A DNA stretch of 36,140 nt from positions 1-36,140 of the forward strand of contig CAWBHS010000098.1 of assembly GCA_963788655.1 (NCBI GenBank). Direction: 5' to 3'. The stretch's first letter is position 1. Each line of letters begins with the position of its first letter. The translations under genes were made by a program, and so were the position numbers. Shown here piece after piece: positions 3,369 through 34,141 of this stretch. The stretch comes from an uncultured Verrucomicrobiae bacterium. Its GTDB lineage: Bacteria > Verrucomicrobiota > Verrucomicrobiia > Limisphaerales > JAFGQR01. The notes beneath the pieces were generated by a model, which saw nothing but the letters and a program-made list of their open reading frames with translations, was not told the origin of the DNA and searched no databases.

Positions 3369-5548
3369 TCAGCAGTTTCCTGGAGCGCTCCCGCAGCACG
3401 TAAATTGCCGTCGGCGCAAACCCGATTGTACGTCAGCTCCAGGCAGTTTCACATCGCACGCTTGATCGGTGACGTTCGCGACGGCCAAACCCACGTCCCC
3501 GCCCGGCGCACGCCAAGCCGCGGCGATTGCCTTGGGGACACGTTTCTTGAACGTCTTCAATTCGTCTTGTTGCCCCGCATAAATCGACAACCGCGACACA
3601 TCAATGGTCTGCTCGCCAGCTTCAAGCGTGGGAAAACCGATGAGAACGCCATCCGCGAGGAACCTCAGCGCCCGGGACCGCACGCGCGCGAGTTGCATCA
3701 CGAACTCGATTTCCCTGCGCCGTTCCCGCAGGTGCGATGCACGGAAATTGGCCAAGGTTGGTTGTTGCCCCCAGACAAAGCCCCGGCCTTGTTCGAGGTA
3801 AAACTGGCGGGAGAATTTCCGGTCCAGCAGTGCCAACGGCTTCTTGGGCGCAAACTCTGCCGGCCACAACTCGTCATACGGCGGCATCGTCAACGACGCA
3901 TAGTTGCCATACTGAATCGCGTAGGGATGGTAAACCGCCTGGAAGAAGGGAATCGGCTCCCAGCCGTCGGGGGCGGCGTAGCGTTCGCGGCTCACCTGCA
4001 GGCTGAGCATCAAGTCAAGATATGGCAGCCATGATTCGCCGACGCCTTCGCCCGCGAGCGCGAGCGGGTTGCGGTGCGACGCCTGCAAAGGCTCGAAGCA
4101 ACGCTCACGAATGTCAGTTGAAAGCAGACGAAAACCGTTCATCCAATATTTCCCACCGCCGACCGGATGCCCGTGCCGCGGATCGTAACACGCCAGGCTG
4201 CTGCACGCCTGGTCCATGTAAATTCCATCGACGCCCAATGTGATGATCGCCTCCTCGGCGATGTCGGCGTAGGTACTGCGCCAGAATGGGGTGGCAATGC
4301 ACATTGAGGCGCAGGGCGATTGGGTGAACGTGTTGTAAATCTCGGGATGCACCGCGCCGTTGGTTCCTTTCACCGCAAAGGTCCTCCGCGCCTCGGTTCG
4401 TCCAGCATTGCCGTCGTCATGCCCCAGAGTCGCTGGTTCATATAGACGATGGCGGGAATGCCCTGGGCGTGGGCCTGCCGCAGGGCGTTGGTGAACGAGC
4501 GTTCGCCTTCCCGTGGGGGCAAGTAATCAGGAAAACCGACGTTGTAGGCACAGCCGTGCCACCAATGCCAGAACACCGAAACCGGTAGCCCGAGTTGCTG
4601 CTGAAGGACGCCAGCCGGTTGCAGCACTTGCTCCGAGCGACCGCGGTTCCACACCCAGAGCGCCGTGTCGCGCACCCAACCGGGCACCGCACCGGTTCGC
4701 GCCCGGCTTTGGATGGCCCACCACTGATTCGTTGCCCAACGACGATATTGTTTCGCCGCCGTCAACCAATCACCGCGGAAGGTTCCCAACACAACTTGGT
4801 ACGGCAGGGTGTAGTCCGCCGAACCGTCGTTTTCGGGCAAGTGAATCAAACCCGCCTGAAGGCGCTGATCGTCGTCCAGCCACACCGTGAAGCTCTTGCG
4901 GAACGCATTGGTGTCATCGCAGGACAGAAACAATCCCGCCTCTTCGCCGTACAACGCGAGGCATTGCAGCGAGGATCCGCCGGGGTAGTCCCATTCGTAA
5001 CGCGGCACTTGGTTCGTCAGGACGTTCTGCCGCGGATTAGCCGCCAGTTGCCCCAGCCACACGGGAACGGCCAGGTGTTCGTCTGGCTGCTCGGGAATGT
5101 TGGGCACAATGGGAAACCGCACCTGGCGCAGGCGCAACGGGCCGAGATCCGTCACCGAAATTATCCACCGGCTGACCGGTTCGCGCGCGTCCAGTGCGAC
5201 CGTCGCTTCCACCTGCAAGCGCGGTTCTTCGAAGTCCGACCAGCGCAGCTTTAACACGTTTGCGCCCATCGTCTGGACTTCGAAATGTTGAGCTTGCGTG
5301 GCGCTTAGGCTGAACGCCTCGCCGTCCGCCCGCAGCAACACCGCGTCCCAAAGCGGCGCTGGACCGCAGACGCCAACGAAGTCGTGCTGGCTGGCAATTT
5401 CCGTCAACTCCACGAGCTGCCCATTTTGGGGATCCAGGCCGAGCCGCAGATGCTCATTCGATAGCGACATAGAGTCGTCACTGGCCGCTGCCGCGATTGC
5501 GAACATGAATCCGAGGCCCCACCGCACGATTGCACTTTGCCACATCAT
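3369..5548 (-). CDS. Secreted DUF6259-like putative glycoside hydrolase, frameshifted near 4400
   Basis: ORFs 4370..5593 and 3369..4373 join into one protein: signal-like N-terminus MMWQSAIVRWGLGFMFAIAAAA, WHWWHGC..GFPDYLPPREG, GVDGIYMDQ, CYDPRHGHPVGGG, IPFFQAVYH. Confidence 0.7.
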
Positions 5549-5683
5549 AGGAACTGCACGCGCCATTCGACGGCACGCCAGCGGTTTTCGCAACCCAATC
5601 TTGCCGGAGCCTCCAGTAATGATGCCGTCTGGCGCCCTTATTCAAGTTCTTGATCTGGCAGTATCATTGCTACGTAAAGAGGC

Positions 5684-7517
5684 GTGAAATACGGTTGTCT
5701 TTGCTTCGTTGCGTGGGCGATTTGTCAGGGCAACTTCGCCCAAGGCAGCGAGATGCTGCTGCGTCTGACGGCGTCGCCAACCGCCCTGGCGATCGATGGC
5801 GCTGGGTGGTTTATCGTCCGTGTGCCTGAAACCGGGGAATACTTGGCAACCCGCAAGGGCGCCTTCCATGTTGATGCCAACAATTTTCTTGTCAACGCAA
5901 CTGGCTGTTACGTCCAGGGATTTAGGGATCCAGATCTTAATGAGATGGGCTCTCTTAGCTTTGACTGGTCGATGCGGCCGGTTGGGATCAATCTGAACGC
6001 TGCGGTGACGAACATTGCCATCGAATCCAACGGTAGCATTCGCATGTTCCTAGACGACGGGACCAACTATGTGCGGGGGCAAATCTTGCTGCAACAGTTC
6101 CTGCACCCGCAACGACTGATCCGCACAGCGCCGGCCCTGTATGCGGGGCTTGACGCCGCCGGCCCCAGACCGTCGTTGGCCGCGCCGGGCACCCAGGGCT
6201 TGGGTTGGCTTCGGTCCCACTATGTGGAATTGGAGCCGCTCCGACTGAACGTCCCCCGCGTCAATCAACCCGGAATGCCGGCCCAAGGCGCACTGACAGC
6301 GGGCGTGGTGACCGACTTTGCCATCGTCGGCAACGGTTTCTTTCAAGTGCGCGATCCGCAAGGAGGCGGGCGCTTTGCCACCCGCGCAGGAATGTTTCTG
6401 CTTGATGGCGACGGTTACTTGATCACTTACCGCGGTATGCGCGTGCAGGGCTACCGCGATTCGGCCTTGACCGAGTTGGGCGATGTGCAGATCGATGCCC
6501 AGCAACGTCCGGTGAGCCTCGATCATACGGCAACAATGATGGCGTACGCCGTTGGCTACGATGGAAGGGTGCGCGTTCGCTTGAGCGATGGTAGCGAGTA
6601 TGCGCGTGGCCAGATTCTGTTGTGGTCGTTCGAGAATCCCACCAGCTTGGTGAAAACCAACGACGCGCTGTACGTCGGAGTCGCGGCCGCCCGGTCGCGG
6701 CCGCTGGCGTCCGCCCGCCAGCAGGGCTTGGGGACCATTCGGCAGGGCGTTCTGGAATTGCTAAGTGTCACCGAGAATTTGCTGGCCGAGCGACGAGACT
6801 TCAGCTTGTTTCAGCAAGGGACATTGCTTCGCACGGACGTGCTTTCCGATCTGGCAATTTCGGGAACCGGCTTCTTTGCGGTCCGCAATCCGGCGGAAAG
6901 CACAATGTTCGTCACGCGCAATGCCCCTTTTCATTTCGACGACCACGGGTACTTGGTCACGGCTGAAGGTTATCGGGTGCAAGGTTTCGCCGACGGGACG
7001 CTGACCAATCGGGGCGACGTCCATCTCGATCCAAGCTGGCGTCCAACGAGTGTCGCTCCAGAGGCTACCGTGGTGAGCTGTGCGTTCGACGATTACGGCC
7101 GCTTGCGGGTGCAGGTACTCGGACGGCTCGGCAGCGTTTCATGGCCAGGTGCTGTTGCAGCTCCTCCGCGCGTCTTATGCCTTGGTCCCAGCAGGTGACG
7201 GTTTATTCACGAATCTCCCGGCGGCCAGGCCGCTGCCCGAACTGGTTGCCGCCGGCACTCAGGGGGCGGGCCGAATTGAGAGCGGCGCTCGGGAAATTAG
7301 CGTGGAGGCTAAAGAACTGATGCTACCCTCCCCCGAAGGATTTCGTTTGTGGATCACCGGCGAGCCGGACACCACGTGCCGGGTGCTGGCCACGACCGAC
7401 TTCTCCGAATGGCAAGAAGTGAGGCAGTTCAACTTGGGGCAACTGGGCGAAGCGGATTTCAGTGATACGAGCATTGAGTCAACGCCCCGACGGTTCTTTC
7501 AGGTTGTCGGCGATTAA
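5684..7517 (+). CDS. Secreted protein with three tandem FlgE/FlgG-like hook/rod core domains and a verrucomicrobial-type C-terminal domain, frameshifted near 7113
   Basis: Three repeats of xLAIxGxGFFxV..TRxGxFxxDxxGYLxTxxGxxVQG..GQILL..GxGxI.SG..E beginning at about 5783, 6314 and 6848. Hydrophobic N-terminal leader. Repeat 3 continues in ORF 7080..7517 (YSDGSAAFHGQVLL), which ends ATTDFSEW...DFSD..PRRFFQVV. Confidence 0.8.
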
Positions 7518-7808
7518 TCTGCGCGACGTGCCAGTGGCCGGCGCATGGTTGGGAGACACGGCCCAAGCAAGCGAACAAAGATCGTGCTCAGTCGATTTGA
7601 ACACGCCGCGGTAGTGGTAATCCAAACGCAGCTACGACTCACCAAACCCATTCCGCAACGACCGCTCAAGAACCATCCGTCGCCCTTGCTGGTGCGAGCG
7701 GGTATCGGTAGATCTCTGGGTTATCGCCCGCGGCTGCGCTCAAGCATACCTCTTGCTCATTCGGGACAGCCAGGGCGTTGTGCTTCAGGGCGAGATGCTG
7801 TTTGGCAC

Positions 7809-9194
7809 TCAGCGCTTCGCAGCTTTCATTTCTTCCACCGCCGGCGCTGGCGGCTTGGATAACCGCGCCAGAAAATCACCCAACGCTGCAATCTCGTTCG
7901 TCTGGCCGACCAGGGGCGGCATGAAGGCGCGATAGGGCGAATTCGTGTCATGCTGGTGCAGCATGTTCAGCAGACTGCCAATCGCCTCCCGGTCACGGCC
8001 GGCCAGCAAAGTCTTCATCGAGCGATAGCCGTATTTTGTGTGGCAGGCCATGCACTGGCCCCGGAACATCGCTTCGCCCTGCGCCAGGTGCGGATCCCCA
8101 TTGCGGCTGGTCCAGATCGAAGGTGTGAGGTAGCCGGCCTCATTCAAGTGCGCCACGTCGTAGGCGCGGACACCGTTCGAATACATGTGCCGCCCGATCA
8201 CGTACGGTTTGCGCAGCATCTCGCGCGCGTATTCCCCGGAGCCAGTGGCCATCAACCCCAGCAGTAATACCGCCGTCGCATGGGCCGGGCTGAAATCCTC
8301 CGGCGAACGCCATGCAAAGAAATAAACCACCCCCACGATGGTGGCCGAGGTCATGACAATGATCAGCGCCACGCGGGTCACCTGCGTGAACGCGCCGGTG
8401 CCGATGGTGGTAATGCCAAATTGCAGCAGCGCGCGTTGGGCGGCCGGAACCTGCCACAAGTACCAGCCCAGCAAAAACGGCATCACCACGAACGACGGCA
8501 CCAGCCATTTCGCGCTCCAGCGCACCAATTCTTTTTTCAGCTCAGGCTGCAAGTAGCCGTCAATCCGGCTGCAAGTTACCAAGGCCCAGATTCCGGCCAG
8601 CGCGATGCAGATCACCGTTCGCAGTGCCAGACTGGGCCAGTAAGTGGGATTGAAAAAGGCCTCCCAAAACCGGCTGGCTTCCTGGCCCGTACCGGCCACA
8701 GCCATCCAGGCATCACCGGGCGTCAGCATGAAGGTCAAGATGCCGTTGATGATCACCAGCGTGCAGAACGACGCGGCAGCATACACCCAACCCACCTTTA
8801 AGTGCAGGTCGTCGGAAATGCGCCCCCACGTGTAGTAATACACCGCGGCCGTGCTCAGTTCGACCATGAAGAACACCCATTCGATGGCCCAGCCGAACAC
8901 GAAATTATGAATCAATGTGCTGGTGGCTTCGGGATTGGCCAAGCCGATGGCAAACCAGATTCCCACGCCCGAGGCCGCGCCAAAGACGCCCGTCAACACC
9001 AGGAAAAACTTCGAGTGCCGGCGCAGGATGTTCAGCCATTCCTGACGGTTTTCCCGAAGCGCCTTGCGTTCGGCCAGGGGCAGGTACAAGCCGCCCCCCA
9101 CGGCGAAGTGCGAAATCATGATGTGGAAGATCGCGATCAGGCCGATCACCCAGCCGCTGCCAATATGGGGAACGTTCCAAAAGGGGTAATTCAT
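7809..9194 (-). CDS. Cytochrome bd subunit I (CydA)-like membrane protein with a C-terminal monoheme cytochrome c domain
   Basis: About 9 TM segments. CydA-like motifs FHIMISHF, WAIEWVFFMVE and EYAREMLRKPY. C-terminal CMACH heme site with a downstream FMPP (candidate Met axial ligand). Confidence 0.8.
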   Translation of the reverse strand: MNYPFWNVPHIGSGWVIGLIAIFHIMISHFAVGGGLYLPLAERKALRENRQEWLNILRRHSKFFLVLTGVFGAASGVGIWFAIGLANPEATSTLIHNFVFGWAIEWVFFMVELSTAAVYYYTWGRISDDLHLKVGWVYAAASFCTLVIINGILTFMLTPGDAWMAVAGTGQEASRFWEAFFNPTYWPSLALRTVICIALAGIWALVTCSRIDGYLQPELKKELVRWSAKWLVPSFVVMPFLLGWYLWQVPAAQRALLQFGITTIGTGAFTQVTRVALIIVMTSATIVGVVYFFAWRSPEDFSPAHATAVLLLGLMATGSGEYAREMLRKPYVIGRHMYSNGVRAYDVAHLNEAGYLTPSIWTSRNGDPHLAQGEAMFRGQCMACHTKYGYRSMKTLLAGRDREAIGSLLNMLHQHDTNSPYRAFMPPLVGQTNEIAALGDFLARLSKPPAPAVEEMKAAKR

Positions 9195-9203
9195 ATCATT
9201 GCC

Positions 9204-10298
9204 TTACGCGTTTTTGAGGGCCGCGTATCCCCAAATCGTGGTGACGGTGAGCACCACCATAACCAACAGGCCGAAATACGTTGCGAGACGCGCCCGCCGT
9301 CCGCTGTGAGTCGCGCCATCATATAATGGAATCAGGAACCATAGGAGCAATCCCAGCGTAAACAGGGTCATGCCCAGGGCCTCCCCTGACGCGCCGGGAA
9401 ACCAATTGCCGAACAGCTTCAGTACCTGGAACGAACTCATAAAATACCATTCAGGATGAATCCCCGCCGGCGCCGGCTTGAGCGGGTCAGCCGCTTCGCC
9501 CAGGTCCCAGGGAAACACGGACGCCATCAACGCCAGCACGTTGAGCGCAATCAACCACATGGCCAGATCCTTCATGAAGAAATTGGGAAAGAACGGAATG
9601 CTCCGGCGTTCTGCGGTGGGTTTGGCTTCCTCACACGGCGGACGGGCGTTGCCATGCTTCTGCACCAACCACAAATGAAATCCCAGCAACGGCAGGAACA
9701 ATGCCGGCAACACGACCACATGCAGCGCAAAGAACCGTTGGATGGTGAACTCGTTGACCTCGGTCCCGCCCCGCACCAACGCGGCCAGTTGGTGGCCGAT
9801 CAATGGCAGCGACGCGGGAATTTCGAGGCCGACTTTCGTGGCGAAATAAGCCAGTTCATTCATCGGCAGCAAGTAACCGCTGAACCCGAAGAACATCGCC
9901 AACAGCAGCAACACCATGCCGCTCCACCAGCCAAACTCCCGTGGCTTGCGGTAGGCTTTCATGAAATATACCGAGAACATGTGAATGAAGATGGCGGCAA
10001 TCATCAAGTTGGCCGCCCACGAATGCGCCGACCGGAGCAACCAGCCAAAGTCGATGACAAACGTGATCTGCCGCACCGATTCGAAGGCGTCCGGTCCGGG
10101 ACGGTAATACACGAGTAACAGCACGCCCGTCAGCGCCTGCACCAGAAAGAAGAACAACGAAATGCCGCCCCAGTAGTACCAGTGCGACTGTGCGTGCAGT
10201 GGGACCGTTTTCTTGCGGGCGAACGCGACCAGGTCGGATACGCCCAATCGCTCGTCCACCCAGGAACAAACCGTGTTGATGGAAGCTTTCATGCGCAA
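9204..10298 (-). CDS. qcrB: Cytochrome b of a bc-type complex (b6 and subunit IV regions in one chain)
   Basis: YYWGG, GWLLRSAHSW (heme His), FIHMF, FSGYLLP, RFFALHV..FHLWLV and the Qo motif IHPEWYF. Confidence 0.92.
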   Translation of the reverse strand: MRMKASINTVCSWVDERLGVSDLVAFARKKTVPLHAQSHWYYWGGISLFFFLVQALTGVLLLVYYRPGPDAFESVRQITFVIDFGWLLRSAHSWAANLMIAAIFIHMFSVYFMKAYRKPREFGWWSGMVLLLLAMFFGFSGYLLPMNELAYFATKVGLEIPASLPLIGHQLAALVRGGTEVNEFTIQRFFALHVVVLPALFLPLLGFHLWLVQKHGNARPPCEEAKPTAERRSIPFFPNFFMKDLAMWLIALNVLALMASVFPWDLGEAADPLKPAPAGIHPEWYFMSSFQVLKLFGNWFPGASGEALGMTLFTLGLLLWFLIPLYDGATHSGRRARLATYFGLLVMVVLTVTTIWGYAALKNA

Positions 10299-10303
10299 TT
10301 TCC

Positions 10304-10788
10304 TCAGACTCGGGTCACCAACACGCCGGTTTCCGTGACCTTCACGTCATACCGCTTCAAAGGCCGGGGCGGCGGCCCACTCAGGTTCTTACCGGTGTTC
10401 GGGTCGTACACGCCCCCGTGGCAGGCGCAATGAATGCGGTGCTTTTCCGGCTCGTACTGCACGGTGCAACCCAAGTGGGTGCAGACAGCGGTCAACGCGG
10501 TCCAAGATCCGTCCGCGTGATGAATCAACATGCTCGGTTTGGAGCCGAATTTGAACATCAGCGCGCTGGCCACTGGGAGCTTCTCCGCGTCCTTCAGCGT
10601 GACCTCCGTCACCGCTGCAGCTTGCTCGGCCATTTCGACCGGCGACGCCAAATAGCGATAGACCGGATAACCGATCGCCGCCGCGTAGCAAATCCCACGC
10701 CGCCCAGCGCCACGCGCACAAACGTCCGCCGGCCCATCAATTCCTGCCACTCGGGCCGCGCGCTCATTTTGCAATTGGATTCGTCCAT
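10304..10788 (-). CDS. qcrA: Rieske 2Fe-2S subunit with a Tat signal, frameshifted near 10700
   Basis: CTHLGC and CACHGG..GPPPRPL motifs. The N-terminus MDESN..MGRRTFVRVALGG lies in the adjacent frame. Its ATG overlaps the upstream TGA (TGATG at 10786-10790). Confidence 0.9.
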
Positions 10789-11912
10789 CACACCACCTTC
10801 TCGGAAACTGGTTTTGCTCGCATCACCACGGAAAGCAACCACGCCACGCCGCCCAATCCAGCCACGAACGTAATCAGGAACAGCCCCACCACCGACCAAT
10901 TGGTCACCACCGTTCGCTGCCACACATCAAAGCCCTTGCTCAACAGCGTCACGTCGCGGATGCCGTCGCGATAAGTCGTCATGCTCAACATCGCCGCCAC
11001 ACCCAATGCCAGGCACAGCCAACTGGCCTGCCCGGCCCGGGCTTTGCCGAATCCCGTCCAGGTCCCGACCAGAAGAACCAAGACCATTACAATCAGCCAG
11101 GCGTAACCGGCAACCTGGTAAAATGGGTAGTCGGCCAATCCAGTGCGAACGGCTTCCGGTTGCTCGCGTAATACCCAGAATGCCACCGCCACCTGCACGA
11201 TCCCCATCACGACCGCCAGGCGGCCGCCGATTGTCGCCAGATGTGAGCGAACGGAGTCTTCCAAAGACTTGCGGCCCGAAAGCCAAACCAGCCACAACCC
11301 GGCGATCGTAAATCCGCCGGCCAGCATAAACAGCCAACGCGGTGTCAACGTGGCATCGACGGGCGGCAAATGAATCCCCATGGCCGTATTGGAATACATA
11401 GTTCCCCACACTTCGGGCCGTAGCATCAACGTCATGTTCGTCGAATAAATCCGCGCAATGACGCCCGCAATCAGCCACGCTCCCAACCCCAACCACCAGC
11501 CCGCCCGTCCGGCTTCACTGGCGGCGGCAAAGCGATACAGCAACCAATAGCACGCCATCAGCAGAAAGATGACCGCGATCCAATAAACGCCAATCAACAC
11601 GCTGCTGGTGTAGAGCGCCGGACCGTAAAGCACCTGGGCGAACAGCAACGGTGGCACCCCCAAGTTGATCACGTAGGTCATGACCACCGGCATCCGCCGC
11701 GCCAGGCTCGAAGACGTGTTCAAACGCAAGGCGCTGGCAGGATTATGCCCGCCGCGCGCCCCGAGGAAATTCAGCCACGTGGCCACGAGCAAGCCACCCA
11801 ACAGCATTTCCACCGACACAAAGTGCAGCGCCAGGGTGACGATGTGCAGCGCCTTGAACAGCCAGACTGGCGCCGGGATGGGAATTGGATCGACGGCGGG
11901 AAATATGTTCAT
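10788..11912 (-). CDS. Polytopic membrane protein, probable CydA'-like partner subunit
   Basis: About 9-10 TM segments. LHIVTLALHF and YVINLGVPPLLFAQVLYG motifs. First gene of a translationally coupled operon that ends with the CydA-like gene. Confidence 0.65.
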   Translation of the reverse strand: MNIFPAVDPIPIPAPVWLFKALHIVTLALHFVSVEMLLGGLLVATWLNFLGARGGHNPASALRLNTSSSLARRMPVVMTYVINLGVPPLLFAQVLYGPALYTSSVLIGVYWIAVIFLLMACYWLLYRFAAASEAGRAGWWLGLGAWLIAGVIARIYSTNMTLMLRPEVWGTMYSNTAMGIHLPPVDATLTPRWLFMLAGGFTIAGLWLVWLSGRKSLEDSVRSHLATIGGRLAVVMGIVQVAVAFWVLREQPEAVRTGLADYPFYQVAGYAWLIVMVLVLLVGTWTGFGKARAGQASWLCLALGVAAMLSMTTYRDGIRDVTLLSKGFDVWQRTVVTNWSVVGLFLITFVAGLGGVAWLLSVVMRAKPVSEKVV

Positions 11913-18461: not shown

Positions 18462-19367
18462 TCAAATTCCAGCCGCGCGTCTCGCCGCCAGCCGCCGCCC
18501 GGTCCACGCTCCCAGGAGGCTGCGTCCGGCAAACGCCAAAGCGTAGAGTACGCCCAACAACGCCACGTCCGTCGGTCCCACCGGCAAATCATATTCGTAA
18601 GCCAGACAGAATCCGATCAGCGCGGACACCCCGCCAATCAGCGACGAACTTATCGCCAATTGCCGCATGTTGCCGGCGAACTGCCGGGCGATCAGTGGCG
18701 GGATCAGTAAAAAGCCAAACGCAATCAGCGGCCCAACGCTCAAAACCGCAATGGCCACCGTGAACCCGATGAGCAAAAACAAACTCAAATCCCAGCCCAC
18801 GACTTTACGTTTCAGCGTGATCGCCATTTCCGGGTCAAAGGAGACGAGCATGAACTCCTTGTTGAACAGCCACAAGGCCGCCAACACGATGAAGAAAGTG
18901 ACGCAGGTGATGACCAAGTCCGTGTTGGATATGGCGATAATTTCCCCTTTGAGCAGATTGAGCCAACCCCGTTCCGCCACCGGACATTTTGCCAATAGCA
19001 AAATGCTCGTAGCTGTGGCCACCACGTAAGCGGTCCCCAACCGTCCTTCCACCAACCCACGCCCGCGTTTCTCCATCAACGACAGCCACAAGATGGCGCC
19101 CAGCGTGAACGCGATGGAGCCGGTCAACGCCAGCAACCGTTGGTCTTCGCCGTGCGTTTCCATTCCCTGCCCGATCCACACGTGCATGGACAAGGCAAAC
19201 GCGATACCCGTCGAGGAAACCTGCGGCAAGGCCACGCCCAAAAAGATCAACCGGCGCAACACCAGGTAAATGCCCACCAGCGGACAGGCAAATCCGACGA
19301 GCAAGCTGACGTACACCGAATTTCGCAAGAGGAAGTCGAACGAGAGAATTTCAATAAGCGTGTGCAT
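18462..19367 (-). CDS. Zn/Mn-type metal ABC transporter permease (ZnuB/MntB family)
   Basis: GIYLVLRRLIFLGVALPQ, LVSFDPEMA, VGPLIAFGFLLIPP, DLPVGP. Confidence 0.9.
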   Translation of the reverse strand: MHTLIEILSFDFLLRNSVYVSLLVGFACPLVGIYLVLRRLIFLGVALPQVSSTGIAFALSMHVWIGQGMETHGEDQRLLALTGSIAFTLGAILWLSLMEKRGRGLVEGRLGTAYVVATATSILLLAKCPVAERGWLNLLKGEIIAISNTDLVITCVTFFIVLAALWLFNKEFMLVSFDPEMAITLKRKVVGWDLSLFLLIGFTVAIAVLSVGPLIAFGFLLIPPLIARQFAGNMRQLAISSSLIGGVSALIGFCLAYEYDLPVGPTDVALLGVLYALAFAGRSLLGAWTGRRLAARRAAGI

Positions 19368-19371
19368 GGTA

Positions 19372-20091
19372 TCAACCCCACGAGAGTTCGAGCAGTTCCG
19401 CGATTTTGTCCGGCGTCATCAGCTCACTGGTCTTGCCGTGCAGTACCGCGCCGCGTTTCAACCAGATCACGGCTTCGGCATATTGATGCACCGCCGCCAG
19501 ATCGTGGGTCACCCACAGCACGCTCATCCGCTGCTCGCGGTGCAACGTGCCCAGCACTTCCATAATGGCTTGGGCGGCCGCCGCATCCACGCCGGCCGTC
19601 GGTTCATCCAGCAACAGCAAGTGCGGTCGCGCCGCCAGGGCCCGGGCGATGAGCACACGCTGCTTCTGGCCGCCCGAAAGACGGGAGAATTGCTGGTGGG
19701 CAAATTCCTCGGCACCCGTCAGACGCAAGCATTTCCAGGTCAAATCGCGTTCCACGGCGGGCACCCTGCGTCCTGGTGGCACGCGCCCGTAGGTCCCCAT
19801 CAGTGCCACCTCGAACCCGGACAGCAGAAACAAGGGATCGAGCGATTCCCGCTGCGGCACGTACCCCAGAATAAGACGCTGGCCATTCCACTCCGGAAAG
19901 ACCACCCGCCCGGAAAGCGGCGGCAGAATGCCGGCCAACGTTTTGAGCAAGGTGGTTTTTCCGGAGCCATTGCCGCCCAGCAACGCGGTGAAACTGCCGC
20001 GCGGCAATTGTAGTTGCACCTGGCCCAGAATCTCGTGTTGACGGTATCCCACCGACACGCGTTCCAGCACCACCAAAGGATCCGTCGTCAT
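19372..20091 (-). CDS. Metal ABC transporter ATP-binding protein
   Basis: Walker A GGNGSGKTT, GYVPQ, signature LSGGQKQR, LLLLDEP, VTHD. Confidence 0.93.
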   Translation of the reverse strand: MTTDPLVVLERVSVGYRQHEILGQVQLQLPRGSFTALLGGNGSGKTTLLKTLAGILPPLSGRVVFPEWNGQRLILGYVPQRESLDPLFLLSGFEVALMGTYGRVPPGRRVPAVERDLTWKCLRLTGAEEFAHQQFSRLSGGQKQRVLIARALAARPHLLLLDEPTAGVDAAAAQAIMEVLGTLHREQRMSVLWVTHDLAAVHQYAEAVIWLKRGAVLHGKTSELMTPDKIAELLELSWG

Positions 20092-21002
20092 TCGTTCAAC
20101 GCCTCGCTCAAATGGGTGACATCGTATTCCAACCAACTGAAAAAGTCCTTGGCCTCCCGGTTACCGCCGGGCATCAACGGCAGCACGAGCAGCTTGGCTC
20201 CGATGGCCTCGGCCACGCGTTGCGCGGTGCGCCGGGGCCGGTTGGGCTCAATGATCACCAGTTTCACGCCCGCCTGTTTGGCTTCCGGCACCAAAGCGTT
20301 AATGTGCGAGGGCGACGGTTCAATCCCCGGTTTGGGTTCGATGGTATCGACCAGCACGAGTCCAAAATAATCCAGCAAATAATCGAAGGACTTGTGGTAG
20401 GTGACCACTTTGGTCCCGCGATACGGCGCCATCAACTTTTTCCATTCGACTTCCTTTTTCGTCAGCCGCTCGTTGAATTGTTTCAGATTGGCCTGGAAAT
20501 CGGCCGCGTGCGCCGCGTCCAGTCGGCCGAACACGTCCGCAATGTGCGCCGCCACAATCCGGCAGTTGTCCGGATTGAGCAGGTAATGTGGATTGCCCAA
20601 CCGATGCACATCGCCTTGGGCGCGACTTACCGACACCGTCGGAACTTGCAGCAGCCGGACCCCCAACGAGCCGTTGATGTCGGCCGAGCCGTTCGGCAGG
20701 ATTTTCGCATTGCGCGCGTTGTTGACCAGCGGCGGCAGCCAACCGATTTCCAATTCCGCACCGCCTTCGATCAGCACGTCCGCGCGGTTCAGCACACGGA
20801 TGAAGCTAGGTTTGGCATCGACGAAATGTGGATCCTCCATGCCGTTGGCCAAACAGGTGACCTTGACGTTGTTCCCGCCGATTTCCTCCGCGATGGCGCC
20901 CAAGTCAGGCAGCGTCGCCACCACGTTCAATTTGGCCGCTGCGCTGATGGGAACCAATACCAGCAAAGCCAGCAAACTCAGTTGTTTCATGATGTCTTTC
21001 AT
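20088..21002 (-). CDS. Metal ABC transporter substrate-binding protein (cluster A-I, ZnuA/TroA-like)
   Basis: Signal peptide, EDPHFV, GDVHRLGNPHY, VTYHKSFDY, IEPKPGIEPS. Confidence 0.92.
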   Translation of the reverse strand: MKDIMKQLSLLALLVLVPISAAAKLNVVATLPDLGAIAEEIGGNNVKVTCLANGMEDPHFVDAKPSFIRVLNRADVLIEGGAELEIGWLPPLVNNARNAKILPNGSADINGSLGVRLLQVPTVSVSRAQGDVHRLGNPHYLLNPDNCRIVAAHIADVFGRLDAAHAADFQANLKQFNERLTKKEVEWKKLMAPYRGTKVVTYHKSFDYLLDYFGLVLVDTIEPKPGIEPSPSHINALVPEAKQAGVKLVIIEPNRPRRTAQRVAEAIGAKLLVLPLMPGGNREAKDFFSWLEYDVTHLSEALNE

Positions 21003-32237: not shown

Positions 32238-32858
32238 TCAAGTCACCGTTTGCACAGCGGCGATGAGTGATTGTTTGACGGCGGCGGGGAGCGTCCTCAA
32301 TCCCGGTTCCTCGAAGTAACACAACGCTTGCAACGGCAGCATGACGTTGAACTGCGGGCCATAAACCTGTCGGGCATAGTCCAAACCCTGGTGCAACGAA
32401 ATTCCGGTTTGGAGAATGGCGTGGATATCCAAATAATCCTTGGCTTCAGCCCGCTGATAGACGGTGTTCAGCTTGGTGGCCAACAAATCAGCCAGCCCAG
32501 CCACCCGACACACTTCGTCATCAGTCCAGTCTGGCTCCGCGATCCGTTGAAAGGTCAGGCCTCCAAAAAAGGAGACCTTGACCAAATCAGCCCCGTCGCG
32601 CAGCAACACCGTTAAGGTGTTCGGTTCCAATTGCAGCACTTCGCCGGAGCCCAGCAGTTCATGGTTGCGCCGGAAAGCTGCCGGGTCCAGAGGCGCAAAC
32701 GAGAAAAAGTCAAAATCGACCGACGCCCGATGTCCCAAGCGCATGGCCAAGGCCGTGCCGCCATAAAGAATAAAGTCCGCCGCGGAAAAACGCAGTTTGG
32801 GCCAGAGCGTGCGTTGACCCGCTGGCAGAATATCAAGTCGCGGTTGAAATTGGCTCAT
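32238..32858 (-). CDS. AbiEii/AbiGii-type nucleotidyltransferase toxin
   Basis: LYGGTALAMRLGHRASVDFDFF, LATKL..RAEAKDYLDI. ATGA overlap with the upstream gene. Confidence 0.88.
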   Translation of the reverse strand: MSQFQPRLDILPAGQRTLWPKLRFSAADFILYGGTALAMRLGHRASVDFDFFSFAPLDPAAFRRNHELLGSGEVLQLEPNTLTVLLRDGADLVKVSFFGGLTFQRIAEPDWTDDEVCRVAGLADLLATKLNTVYQRAEAKDYLDIHAILQTGISLHQGLDYARQVYGPQFNVMLPLQALCYFEEPGLRTLPAAVKQSLIAAVQTVT

Positions 32859-33169
32859 GCGGGGAATCGATGCGGCAAGGGTGGGACTGGGAAGCGCCCC
32901 AGCCGAACATGCCAATAGTTCCAACGCCGCGCGCTAAACACCCCCGGCGGCGGCGCGTTGATAACCTCTTCGAAGATGGCTTCACCCAGTTTGCTTTTCA
33001 CGGTCATGATGTCCTCCCACGTGCCCAGACTCATGACCTGAGCGGCAAACCGATGCCGGTTAGTCAGGGCCTCTTCAGGCTTTTCCCACCAGAACAACCG
33101 CTGGGCGACGGGCAGCAAATCGGGGTCGCTCCGCAAATCAGATTTAGTGGTTGTTGCGGTTTGGTTCAT
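32855..33169 (-). CDS. Small partner protein (DUF6922-like), putative antitoxin
   Basis: RLFWW..AQVMSLGTWEDI..FSARRWNYW. Translationally coupled to the nucleotidyltransferase gene. Confidence 0.75.
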   Translation of the reverse strand: MNQTATTTKSDLRSDPDLLPVAQRLFWWEKPEEALTNRHRFAAQVMSLGTWEDIMTVKSKLGEAIFEEVINAPPPGVFSARRWNYWHVRLGRFPVPPLPHRFPA

Positions 33170-33509: not shown

Positions 33510-33926
33510 TCAAGGTTGGGAGCGTGATGGATGAAAGGCGTAATACTCGACCGTACAGAAGCGGGCGTCGCGAATTGCAGGATCGGGCGTGATCAGCACC
33601 AAGTCCAACACGTGGGCCGTTGCGGCGATGGTTCGGTCAAAGGGATCACCGGGAAAACCGGCGGGCAACTCATTCGTCGCCACGGCCACGGTTGCGGTGA
33701 GATCCAGTAGTTCGATGTCGCGCGCCATTACCCGGTCAAAAAACTCGGTCAGGCTTCCCGCGAGTTGCAACCGACCCCGACGGTGGTGCATGGCCAATTC
33801 AAGCAGAGTGACGCCGCAGACACCCTTCACCTCATCGGTGTCCAGCAACCGGCGAACCCGCGCGGGAAACACCTGGGGCATCAGCGCACTGTTGGCCAGC
33901 GTGGCCGTGTCGAGCAGGTAACGCAT
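33510..33926 (-). CDS. vapC: PIN-domain VapC-type toxin
   Basis: MRYLLDT, LLELA, GDPFDRTIAATA, LITPD. TAATG overlap with the antitoxin gene. Confidence 0.88.
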   Translation of the reverse strand: MRYLLDTATLANSALMPQVFPARVRRLLDTDEVKGVCGVTLLELAMHHRRGRLQLAGSLTEFFDRVMARDIELLDLTATVAVATNELPAGFPGDPFDRTIAATAHVLDLVLITPDPAIRDARFCTVEYYAFHPSRSQP

Positions 33927-34141
33927 TAGTAATTGCCTTTCCATTCTGCACGCGGTACGGGATCGGGACCGAGGGGGGGGCCGGCCGCCAGGCTCCTGGC
34001 CGCACCGAAGCAACGCGTGGGCTTTTCGCATTGAAAGGTGAACTGCTTGCCTTGACGGTCCACCAACCGCACCGTTTTCCCGGCGGCGGCCAACCGTTTG
34101 AAGTGCGCCAAGCGCCTGGAAAATTCACGCATCGTAATCAT
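33926..34141 (-). CDS. Phd/YefM-like antitoxin
   Basis: ITMREFSRRLAHFKRLAAAGKTVRLV pattern directly upstream of the PIN toxin. Start at 34141 or 34162. Confidence 0.7.
   Translation of the reverse strand: MITMREFSRRLAHFKRLAAAGKTVRLVDRQGKQFTFQCEKPTRCFGAARSLAAGPPLGPDPVPRAEWKGNY

Follow-up and report, generated by a model that had tools for sequence, protein, structure and literature searches.

The axial proteins of the bacterial flagellum carry a single set of domains, are leaderless, leave the cell through the flagellar type III system and polymerise. Their D0 segments carry the export signal, form the inner tube and are needed both for type III export and for polymerisation. Here we follow up an earlier note on a gene in a 36,140-nucleotide (nt) stretch of DNA (contig CAWBHS010000098.1 of assembly GCA_963788655.1, positions 1 to 36,140 of the forward strand; hereafter the window) from a soil Verrucomicrobiota genome of the order Limisphaerales. 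Its predicted product contains three copies of the D1 domain of flagellar hook and rod proteins, no match to either D0 family, a putative N-terminal leader of Sec type and a C-terminal domain foreign to the flagellum. We propose, with a probability of roughly 0.6, that it is a Sec-exported, non-polymerising D1 protein that lies outside the flagellar assembly route and resides in the envelope or outside the cell. What is new is the architecture together with the proposed export route, not the D1 domain itself. A full-text literature search, which gave listings and the openings of abstracts, yielded no paper on a D0-less, multi-D1 or Sec-exported relative of FlgE, in line with the earlier note, which had not recognised the architecture as described.

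A triplicated D1 domain

The gene is spread over two overlapping open reading frames (ORFs) on the forward strand, one of 504 amino acids (aa) with a GTG start (5684-7198) and one of 145 aa in the +1 frame (7080-7517). Joined, they give a product of about 610 aa (611 aa with an X at the break) that comprises a short hydrophobic leader, three modules of about 170 aa and a small C-terminal beta-sandwich (Table 1). PF22692 (LlgE_F_G_D1), the D1 domain, is the sole Pfam family of the 504-aa ORF; three stretches of the ORF match it (E 1.9e-39, 134 bits, cut-off 27), spaced by 531 and 534 nt, whereas axial FlgEFG proteins have one per chain. Both ORFs were recovered, and the spacing of the repeats equals that given in the earlier note. 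In NCBIfam, the subfamily model TIGR03506 (FlgEFG_subfam) scored 211.8 bits, above its cut-off of 70.25, and the FlgE and FlgG equivalog models stayed far under theirs (for example 173.2 against 469 and 149.8 against 252.75), the flgG model aligning only at its positions 81-222 of 259, which correspond to the D1 part. The flgF equivalog TIGR02490 was barely over its cut-off (179.6 against 178.5 bits), a score reached by summing three stretches. PADLOC returned no match.

An AlphaFold2 model of the 504-aa ORF, built from an alignment of 44 relatives, has a mean predicted local distance difference test score (pLDDT) of 79.8 and a predicted template-modelling score of 0.62. It contains three beta-rich domains (about aa 25-183, 203-358 and 397-479) joined by low-confidence linkers, with one short helix at aa 364-372. 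When the model was compared with the PDB by Foldseek, 46 matches were obtained at E<=0.001, and the top 44 ranks were all flagellar rod or hook entries. Among these are distal-rod FlgG (8wki_s, E 4.4e-10), a 20-kDa FlgG fragment (6jf2_A, template-modelling score (TM) 0.82 on the target, root-mean-square deviation (rmsd) 3.2 A) and D1 of Pseudomonas aeruginosa FlgE (9wwj_L, TM 0.86 on the target, rmsd 2.1 A, 149 columns). The three modules are thus predicted to adopt the FlgG/FlgE D1 fold, and the D1-like folding of the repeats suggested in the earlier note is borne out by the model at TM 0.82-0.86.

Neither PF00460 (Flg_bb_rod, the N-terminal D0) nor PF06429 (Flg_bbr_C, the C-terminal D0) matched the protein at E<=1. 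A six-frame search of the whole genome placed both families on two other contigs only, C38 and C107 (five PF06429 matches at E<=0.1, none of them on the window's contig), so no D0 helix is concealed in another frame of this contig. Its statement that both D0 segments are missing therefore stands for these two families in every frame of the contig, with a qualification for linker 2. The 9-residue helix at aa 364-372, between modules 2 and 3, looks by eye like a stub of the C-terminal D0: the preceding 'LELLSV' aligns with 'LELSNV' of FlgE, where the C-terminal D0 helix of that protein starts, and the family consensus at this point reads LEL.Q.D..LLA.R. Since D0 is absent, the protein should, from what is generally known of axial proteins, be able neither to enter the flagellar channel nor to polymerise.

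Table 1 Features of the triple-D1 gene, with positions in the window
Feature	Position	Strand	Evidence and remarks
Sigma-54-type -24/-12 element TGGCAG-N5-TTGC	5656..5670	+	13 nt before GTG; one mismatch to TGGCAC-N5-TTGC, GG and GC fixed
Start codon GTG and putative Sec leader (MKYGCLCFVAWAICQGNFAQG)	5684..5746	+	Top hydrophobic 12-mer, Kyte-Doolittle 1.98
Module 1, FlgE-type D1	5747..6241	+	hmmsearch envelope aa 15-186; PF22692 at 5789-6043; 39% identity to own FlgE residues 71-252; pLDDT mostly 84-97
Linker 1, low-confidence loop	6242..6268	+	pLDDT <50 at aa 188-200
Module 2, FlgE-type D1	6269..6769	+	Envelope aa 196-362, E 1.2e-82; PF22692 at 6320-6571; 51% identity to own FlgE residues 82-250
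Linker 2, containing a short helix, perhaps left over from the C-terminal D0	6770..6799	+	Helix aa 364-372 in the model, after 'LELLSV'
Module 3, FlgE-type D1, split by the frameshift	6800..7304	+	Envelope aa 373-541 (read-through, X at break); PF22692 at 6854-7057; first 103 residues 47% identical to own FlgE
Frameshift site, one surplus base	7112..7118	+	Three-frame translation; family consensus carried on in the +1 frame
Premature stop of the upstream frame	7196..7198	+	End of the 504-aa ORF
C-terminal 'FYRV' tail, small Ig/FN3-like beta-sandwich, ends RRFFQVVGD	7305..7514	+	AlphaFold model; tail hidden Markov model E 1.4e-12
Stop codon TAA	7515..7517	+	End of the +1-frame ORF

The protein family and its descent from FlgE

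When 5.8 billion proteins were searched, 166 matches were obtained at E<=0.001; the figures that follow come from the best 120. Among these, 47 (P0002-P0048) are proteins of 550-743 aa with PF22692 alone, 35-46% identity and 82-95% query coverage; after them in the listed matches come ordinary proteins of about 285 aa that carry PF00460, PF22692 and PF06429 and are named FlgG, FlgE or hook-basal body protein of Verrucomicrobia by their sources. With a profile made from FlgE D1, exactly three modules were counted in 45/45 aligned members, the window's read-through included. Modules of the same protein share a median identity of 40% (range 31-52%, 135 pairs), and their median identity to D1 of the genome's own FlgE is 43%. 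Proteins of 883-2520 aa gave one match, an ordinary 939-aa FlgE with D0 domains, which by the tool's own account is weak evidence.

Source names and Atlas taxa assign the relatives to Verrucomicrobiota. Twenty of 401 sampled genomes of the window's order have a match that spans two or three modules in one frame (G000, which is the window's own genome, G770, G714, G548, G726, G655, G705, G587, G518, G578, G521, G650, G641, G682, G781, G451, G552, G677, G766 and G707). These carriers span nine families of the order, and G641 and G682 cover two modules only. In a 401-genome sample of the phylum, the matches listed from genomes other than the window's were all confined to a single module and to frames of <=502 aa. 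A locus search with a 7-row alignment found 80 loci, mainly ordinary FlgE of many phyla, the top two being Verrucomicrobiota metagenome-assembled genomes; the same type of search with the single window protein gave no match. The repeat architecture that the earlier note had suggested seeking in other Verrucomicrobiota is thus present there, and the gene belongs to a conserved family that is restricted, as far as sampled, to one order of this phylum.

Elsewhere the genome encodes an ordinary set of flagellar genes. One run, on C38, comprises flgB, flgC, fliE, fliF, fliG, fliH, fliI, fliJ, fliK, flgD and flgE, names assigned by gene order and sequence ends and partly by interpretation; C107 holds flgF, flgG, flgA, flgH and flgI, and beside its flg genes stand five flagellin genes and one weaker Flagellin_N match, perhaps flgL. 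The FlgE encoded on C38 is short, at 288 aa. BLASTP aligns its residues 71/82-250 with all three modules of the ORF at 39%, 51% and 47% identity, the alignments ending at the start of the C-terminal D0 helix, and identity of the modules to FlgG and FlgF is about 30%.

We inferred a maximum-likelihood tree of 85 rows from all modules of 23 family members out of 45, together with 16 D1 regions of FlgE, FlgF and FlgG from the window's genome and four to five carrier genomes. All modules fell into one clade with FlgE, separate from FlgG and FlgF (support 99 in the Shimodaira-Hasegawa-like approximate likelihood ratio test, SH-aLRT), which identifies FlgE, and not FlgG or FlgF, as the donor. All 23 first modules formed one clade (SH-aLRT 95) that also took in one stray second module, that of the long-branched P0051; second modules formed two position-pure groups, and third modules did likewise. 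Because the modules cluster by position, the triplication is older than the spread of the family. At the level of sequence, descent of the modules from the hook protein FlgE is thereby shown, and the two expectations of the earlier note on this point, a flagellar gene set elsewhere in the genome and repeats that branch with verrucomicrobial FlgE, agree with what was found.

Putative export signals and competing readings

The leader frame is open for just 2 codons upstream of the GTG start (open frame 506 aa). Across the family, 37/45 members have a hydrophobic 12-mer (Kyte-Doolittle mean >=1.6) ahead of module 1, often followed by A.A-like sites. Use of the GTG is supported by the sigma-54-type motif that lies 13 nt upstream of it. 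The sigma-54 consensus is TGGCAC-N5-TTGC, rpoN is present in the genome, and matches occur there at 0.03 per kb per strand with <=1 mismatch and at 0.29 with <=2. We fetched 19 carrier loci, 18 of which had the family gene among the chosen ORFs; a motif with <=2 mismatches stands 12-15 nt before an in-frame, leader-opening start codon in 8/18 (the window, L071, L074, L075, L078, L079, L083 and L087, with L074 and L075 close kin). At this distance the transcript would begin at the start codon or within a few bases of it, which implies that the family genes may give rise to leaderless or near-leaderless transcripts. Sigma-70 promoters and terminators around the gene are at or under chance level.

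At the other end, the protein closes with a small domain that we refer to as the FYRV tail, a type of terminal beta-sandwich of about 65-75 aa with the motif W...[FY][FY]R[VLI] (FFQV instead of FYRV in the window protein). In a model of the downstream 145-aa piece, made with 43 relatives, five strands make up roughly the last 60 residues, and pLDDT reaches 91-96 at aa 90-130. No Pfam or NCBIfam model matches the domain, Foldseek found nothing at E<=0.001, and the best VIA-align score (Z 6.3, tied between FN3/Ig-like chains that include FlgD) is not above the background of the tool, so no specific structural relative can be named. Its 30 nearest Atlas clusters are 'hypothetical' and have no Pfam family in common; the top three are 66-69 aa long and mainly from Verrucomicrobiota.

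A tail profile from 31 family members was then searched over the 80,635 stop-to-stop frames of the window's own genome. Matches at E<=0.01 rose from 37 frames in round 1 (36 with the domain end <=15 aa from the stop) to 142 in round 2 (129 terminal) and 194 in round 3 (171 terminal by the same limit). The round-3 frames have a median length of 534 aa, and many reach 1000-2600 aa; examples of tail-bearing places are C104:24139-31281 and C57:224867-232869. In that round the window's tail (E 2.4e-14) has an envelope of aa 76-145 in a 146-aa frame, which leaves 1 residue ahead of the stop. Of the top-ranking long frames with the tail, 20 were scanned in Pfam, and 19 of them contain LTD, CBM_4_9, CotH, Ig, PKD, Calx-beta, BACON, cohesin, alkaline phosphatase, metallophosphatase or arylsulfotransferase domains, kinds that are typical of extracellular proteins. 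The FYRV tail is thus shown to be a genome-wide C-terminal tag; that a distinct C-terminal domain takes the place of D0, as claimed in the earlier note, is confirmed, and about 171 other frames share it. A tail common to so many frames, of which 19/20 sampled are of exoprotein type, supports export by a non-flagellar route.

Taken together, leader and tail suggest that the protein is exported by Sec and lies in the envelope or the extracellular space. We propose the following sequence of events. The D1 domain of FlgE would have been triplicated, with loss of the type III export and polymerisation segments D0 and Dc, and the protein would have gained an N-terminal leader of Sec type as well as the FYRV tail of many exported proteins in these bacteria. 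Transcribed probably from a sigma-54 promoter right at the start codon, it may cross the inner membrane via Sec, without entering the flagellar channel or building a tube, and come to lie in the envelope or the extracellular space alongside other FYRV-tailed proteins. Its three D1 domains would form a non-polymerising, beta-rich array that could serve as a binding or spacer body. The co-option of a hook domain into a non-flagellar surface protein, put forward in the earlier note, is partly supported by the three D1 folds, the missing D0, the leader in 37/45 members, the shared tail and the non-flagellar neighbours described below. Its 'surface' label is inferred from leader and tail, and the functions of spacer, adhesin or decoy offered with it would be candidates.

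Several observations weigh against this proposal. Eight of the 45 members have no hydrophobic N-terminus, mostly those with very short N-termini. The window's own leader depends on GTG 5684, which by promoter geometry lies about 2 nt from the transcript start, and the gene caller behind P0001 starts at ATG 5753, giving no leader. The -24/-12 motif has other spacings in two more loci and is absent from 8/18. Sorting, anchoring and binding are candidate functions of the FYRV tail, each of them conjectural. All 20/20 carriers are among the 199/401 genomes of the order sample with PF00460. Finally, the window's copy is frameshifted in module 3, and public data leave the site uncovered: three soil-metagenome contig sets contain shares of 0.09-0.10 of the stretch, covering 6765-6915 and 7408-7520, with nothing over 6924-7399, and no RNA set was listed as containing it.

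The frameshift raises the possibility that the gene is a pseudogene in this organism, in which case the product would be a 504-aa protein cut short in module 3 and missing the tail. The upstream frame is last intact at codon CAG (7112-7114), and the +1 frame takes over at TAC (7116-7118), so one surplus base lies near 7115, between 7114 and 7116 (near 7113 in the earlier note). Upstream, module 3 runs to ...GRLRVQ and continues in unrelated residues to the stop; the +1 frame resumes as YSDGSAAFHGQVLLQ..., which equals the family consensus G.I.V.LSDG..F.RGQVLLQ. A programmed frameshift was considered and rejected as unlikely, as the profile matches in the other 19 carrier genomes report no internal stop (17/19 cover all three modules in one piece) and no slippery site occurs at 7105-7120.

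Decay of the gene would fit the presence of the frameshift in the assembly at a site with no homopolymer run >2, and also the state of the two adjoining upstream genes, which are split as well, a GH78 rhamnosidase into three frames (77-2803) and a DUF6259 gene into two (3369-5593). Such splits are, however, widespread: 46/171 tail-ending frames are <250 aa, and 27 of those 46 have an abutting upstream frame of >=150 aa, so the pattern is more like assembly indel errors than decay of this gene. The family profile still scores well on each half (603 and 116 bits), and there are no further stops. Either the assembly is wrong at the surplus base or the gene is inactive in this organism, and we regard inactivity as a real but lesser possibility. 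It would concern this copy.

A second alternative is that the protein is an accessory of the flagellum, its Sec-exported D1 modules docking on, or mimicking, the D1 surface of a short hook that lacks D2; an outer hook layer, a periplasmic partner of rod or hook, and a decoy for hook binders were considered as forms of it. The co-occurrence with PF00460 given above points in this direction, as does G456, the only other genome of the window's genus in the sample (93% complete), which has neither the family gene nor PF00460. The modules are also as near to FlgE D1 as they are to each other (medians of 43% and 40%), and with an own FlgE of just 288 aa, D1 would form the outer surface of the hook. 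On the other hand, the carrier families are mostly flagellated anyway (f2 9/11, f92 12/13) and kin genomes are non-independent, so the co-occurrence has little power; it is consistent with a tie to the flagellum and no proof of one.

Genomic context and regulation likewise speak against an accessory. No flagellar Pfam family was found at E<=1e-5 in 58 of the 64 ORFs that flank the family gene in 16 loci, two genes on each side, the other six having been left out as duplicates of neighbours in closely related loci, and none occurs in the 27 window ORFs scanned, so the lack of flanking flagellar genes claimed in the earlier note extends to the relatives. Neighbour clusters common to more than three loci were not found, and those that recur do so in close kin. 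No sigma-54 motif with <=1 mismatch precedes any of the 15 own flagellar genes checked, so that shared regulation is not seen and the promoter gives no tie to the flagellar regulon. A sigma-28 promoter pattern was found neither before the family genes nor before the own flagellar genes, and the genome-wide list of sigma-54 motifs (530 matches at <=1 mismatch, mostly off gene starts) is too noisy to define a regulon. A complex prediction of aa 22-480 with D1 of the own FlgE (score 0.00, mark 0.32) says nothing for or against binding. On balance we consider a flagellar accessory unlikely. Somewhat more doubtful still is the specific form of an extracellular hook partner or mimic, in which the three D1 domains would be held like a patch of the hook lattice and would cover the D2-less hook or else serve as a decoy to phages or predators that bind the hook. 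A flagellum-linked role of this kind is compatible with a Sec-exported, non-polymerising D1 protein.

That the gene results from misassembly, or from ordinary flgE genes that recently piled up in tandem, is very improbable and is contradicted, as is the corresponding doubt in the earlier note, by a D0-less three-module layout with tail that recurs in 44 other database proteins and 19 other genomes, by the clustering of modules by position across the family and by an ordinary flgE that adjoins flgD and fliK on another contig, even though every module is plainly FlgE-like.

The genome bin measures 8.96 Mb and is 86% complete and 5.6% contaminated (G456: 5.3 Mb). Contig GC content is uniform at 0.576-0.626, and neither the window's contig nor the flagellar contigs are set apart from the bin; GC gives no sign of a mixed bin, which may still exist. 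Upstream of the family gene are the split GH78 and DUF6259 genes; a group of cytochrome genes follows it on the opposite strand. The GH78 alpha-L-rhamnosidase frames correspond to N-terminal domains, a concanavalin-like domain and a six-hairpin domain, and the DUF6259 profile runs on across its frame break. Downstream, a respiratory-type gene run on the reverse strand (7809-11912) includes a 461-aa protein that matches cytochrome bd subunit I in its N-terminal half (PF01654, only at profile positions 4-195) and has a CMACH heme-c-type motif in its C-terminal part; after it come a cytochrome b, a Rieske protein and a 374-aa ORF with no Pfam family. Further along on the same strand are a metal-uptake transporter operon (ZnuA/ABC-3/ABC_tran, 18462-21002), an AbiEii-type nucleotidyltransferase toxin gene (32238-32924) and a PIN-domain gene (33510-34031), the latter two being likely toxin-antitoxin modules.

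Comparison with known systems

The triple-D1 family would clearly exemplify the reuse of a structural domain of the flagellum outside the route of flagellar assembly, in a layout retained across at least nine families of one order. If the protein acts on the hook, it would represent a new way of modifying flagella, with a D1 domain at work that bypassed the export pathway of its kind; otherwise it offers a defined non-polymerising D1 scaffold for study. A practical consequence concerns annotation: since relatives are named 'flagellar hook protein FlgE' by the Joint Genome Institute (JGI) and the flgF model is passed by summed modules, flagellar gene counts in these genomes can be inflated.

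Among described proteins, the closest are FlgE, represented by the 288-aa protein encoded on C38, and the FlgEFG axial family TIGR03506. They share with the window protein the same D1 at 39-51% identity and the same predicted fold, and the modules branch with FlgE. In contrast to these proteins, the window protein has neither an N-terminal D0 nor Dc nor a C-terminal D0, contains three D1 domains per chain where they have one, begins with a putative hydrophobic leader, ends in a foreign tail domain and is encoded outside any flagellar cluster with flgD, fliK and the like. The C-terminal domains of the type IX secretion system (T9SS) of Bacteroidota (PF18962/TIGR04183) resemble the FYRV tail in outline only, both being small terminal beta-sandwiches on many exported proteins; no sequence match was obtained at E<=1 in Pfam or NCBIfam, and no search for the T9SS was made here. 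With the FYRV-tailed exoproteins of its own genome, the window protein shares the tail domain itself, with its small, confidently predicted Ig/FN3-like fold. It differs from them in its cargo, which consists of hook domains here and of Ig, LTD, PKD or BACON domains or of enzymes in the 20 sampled frames.

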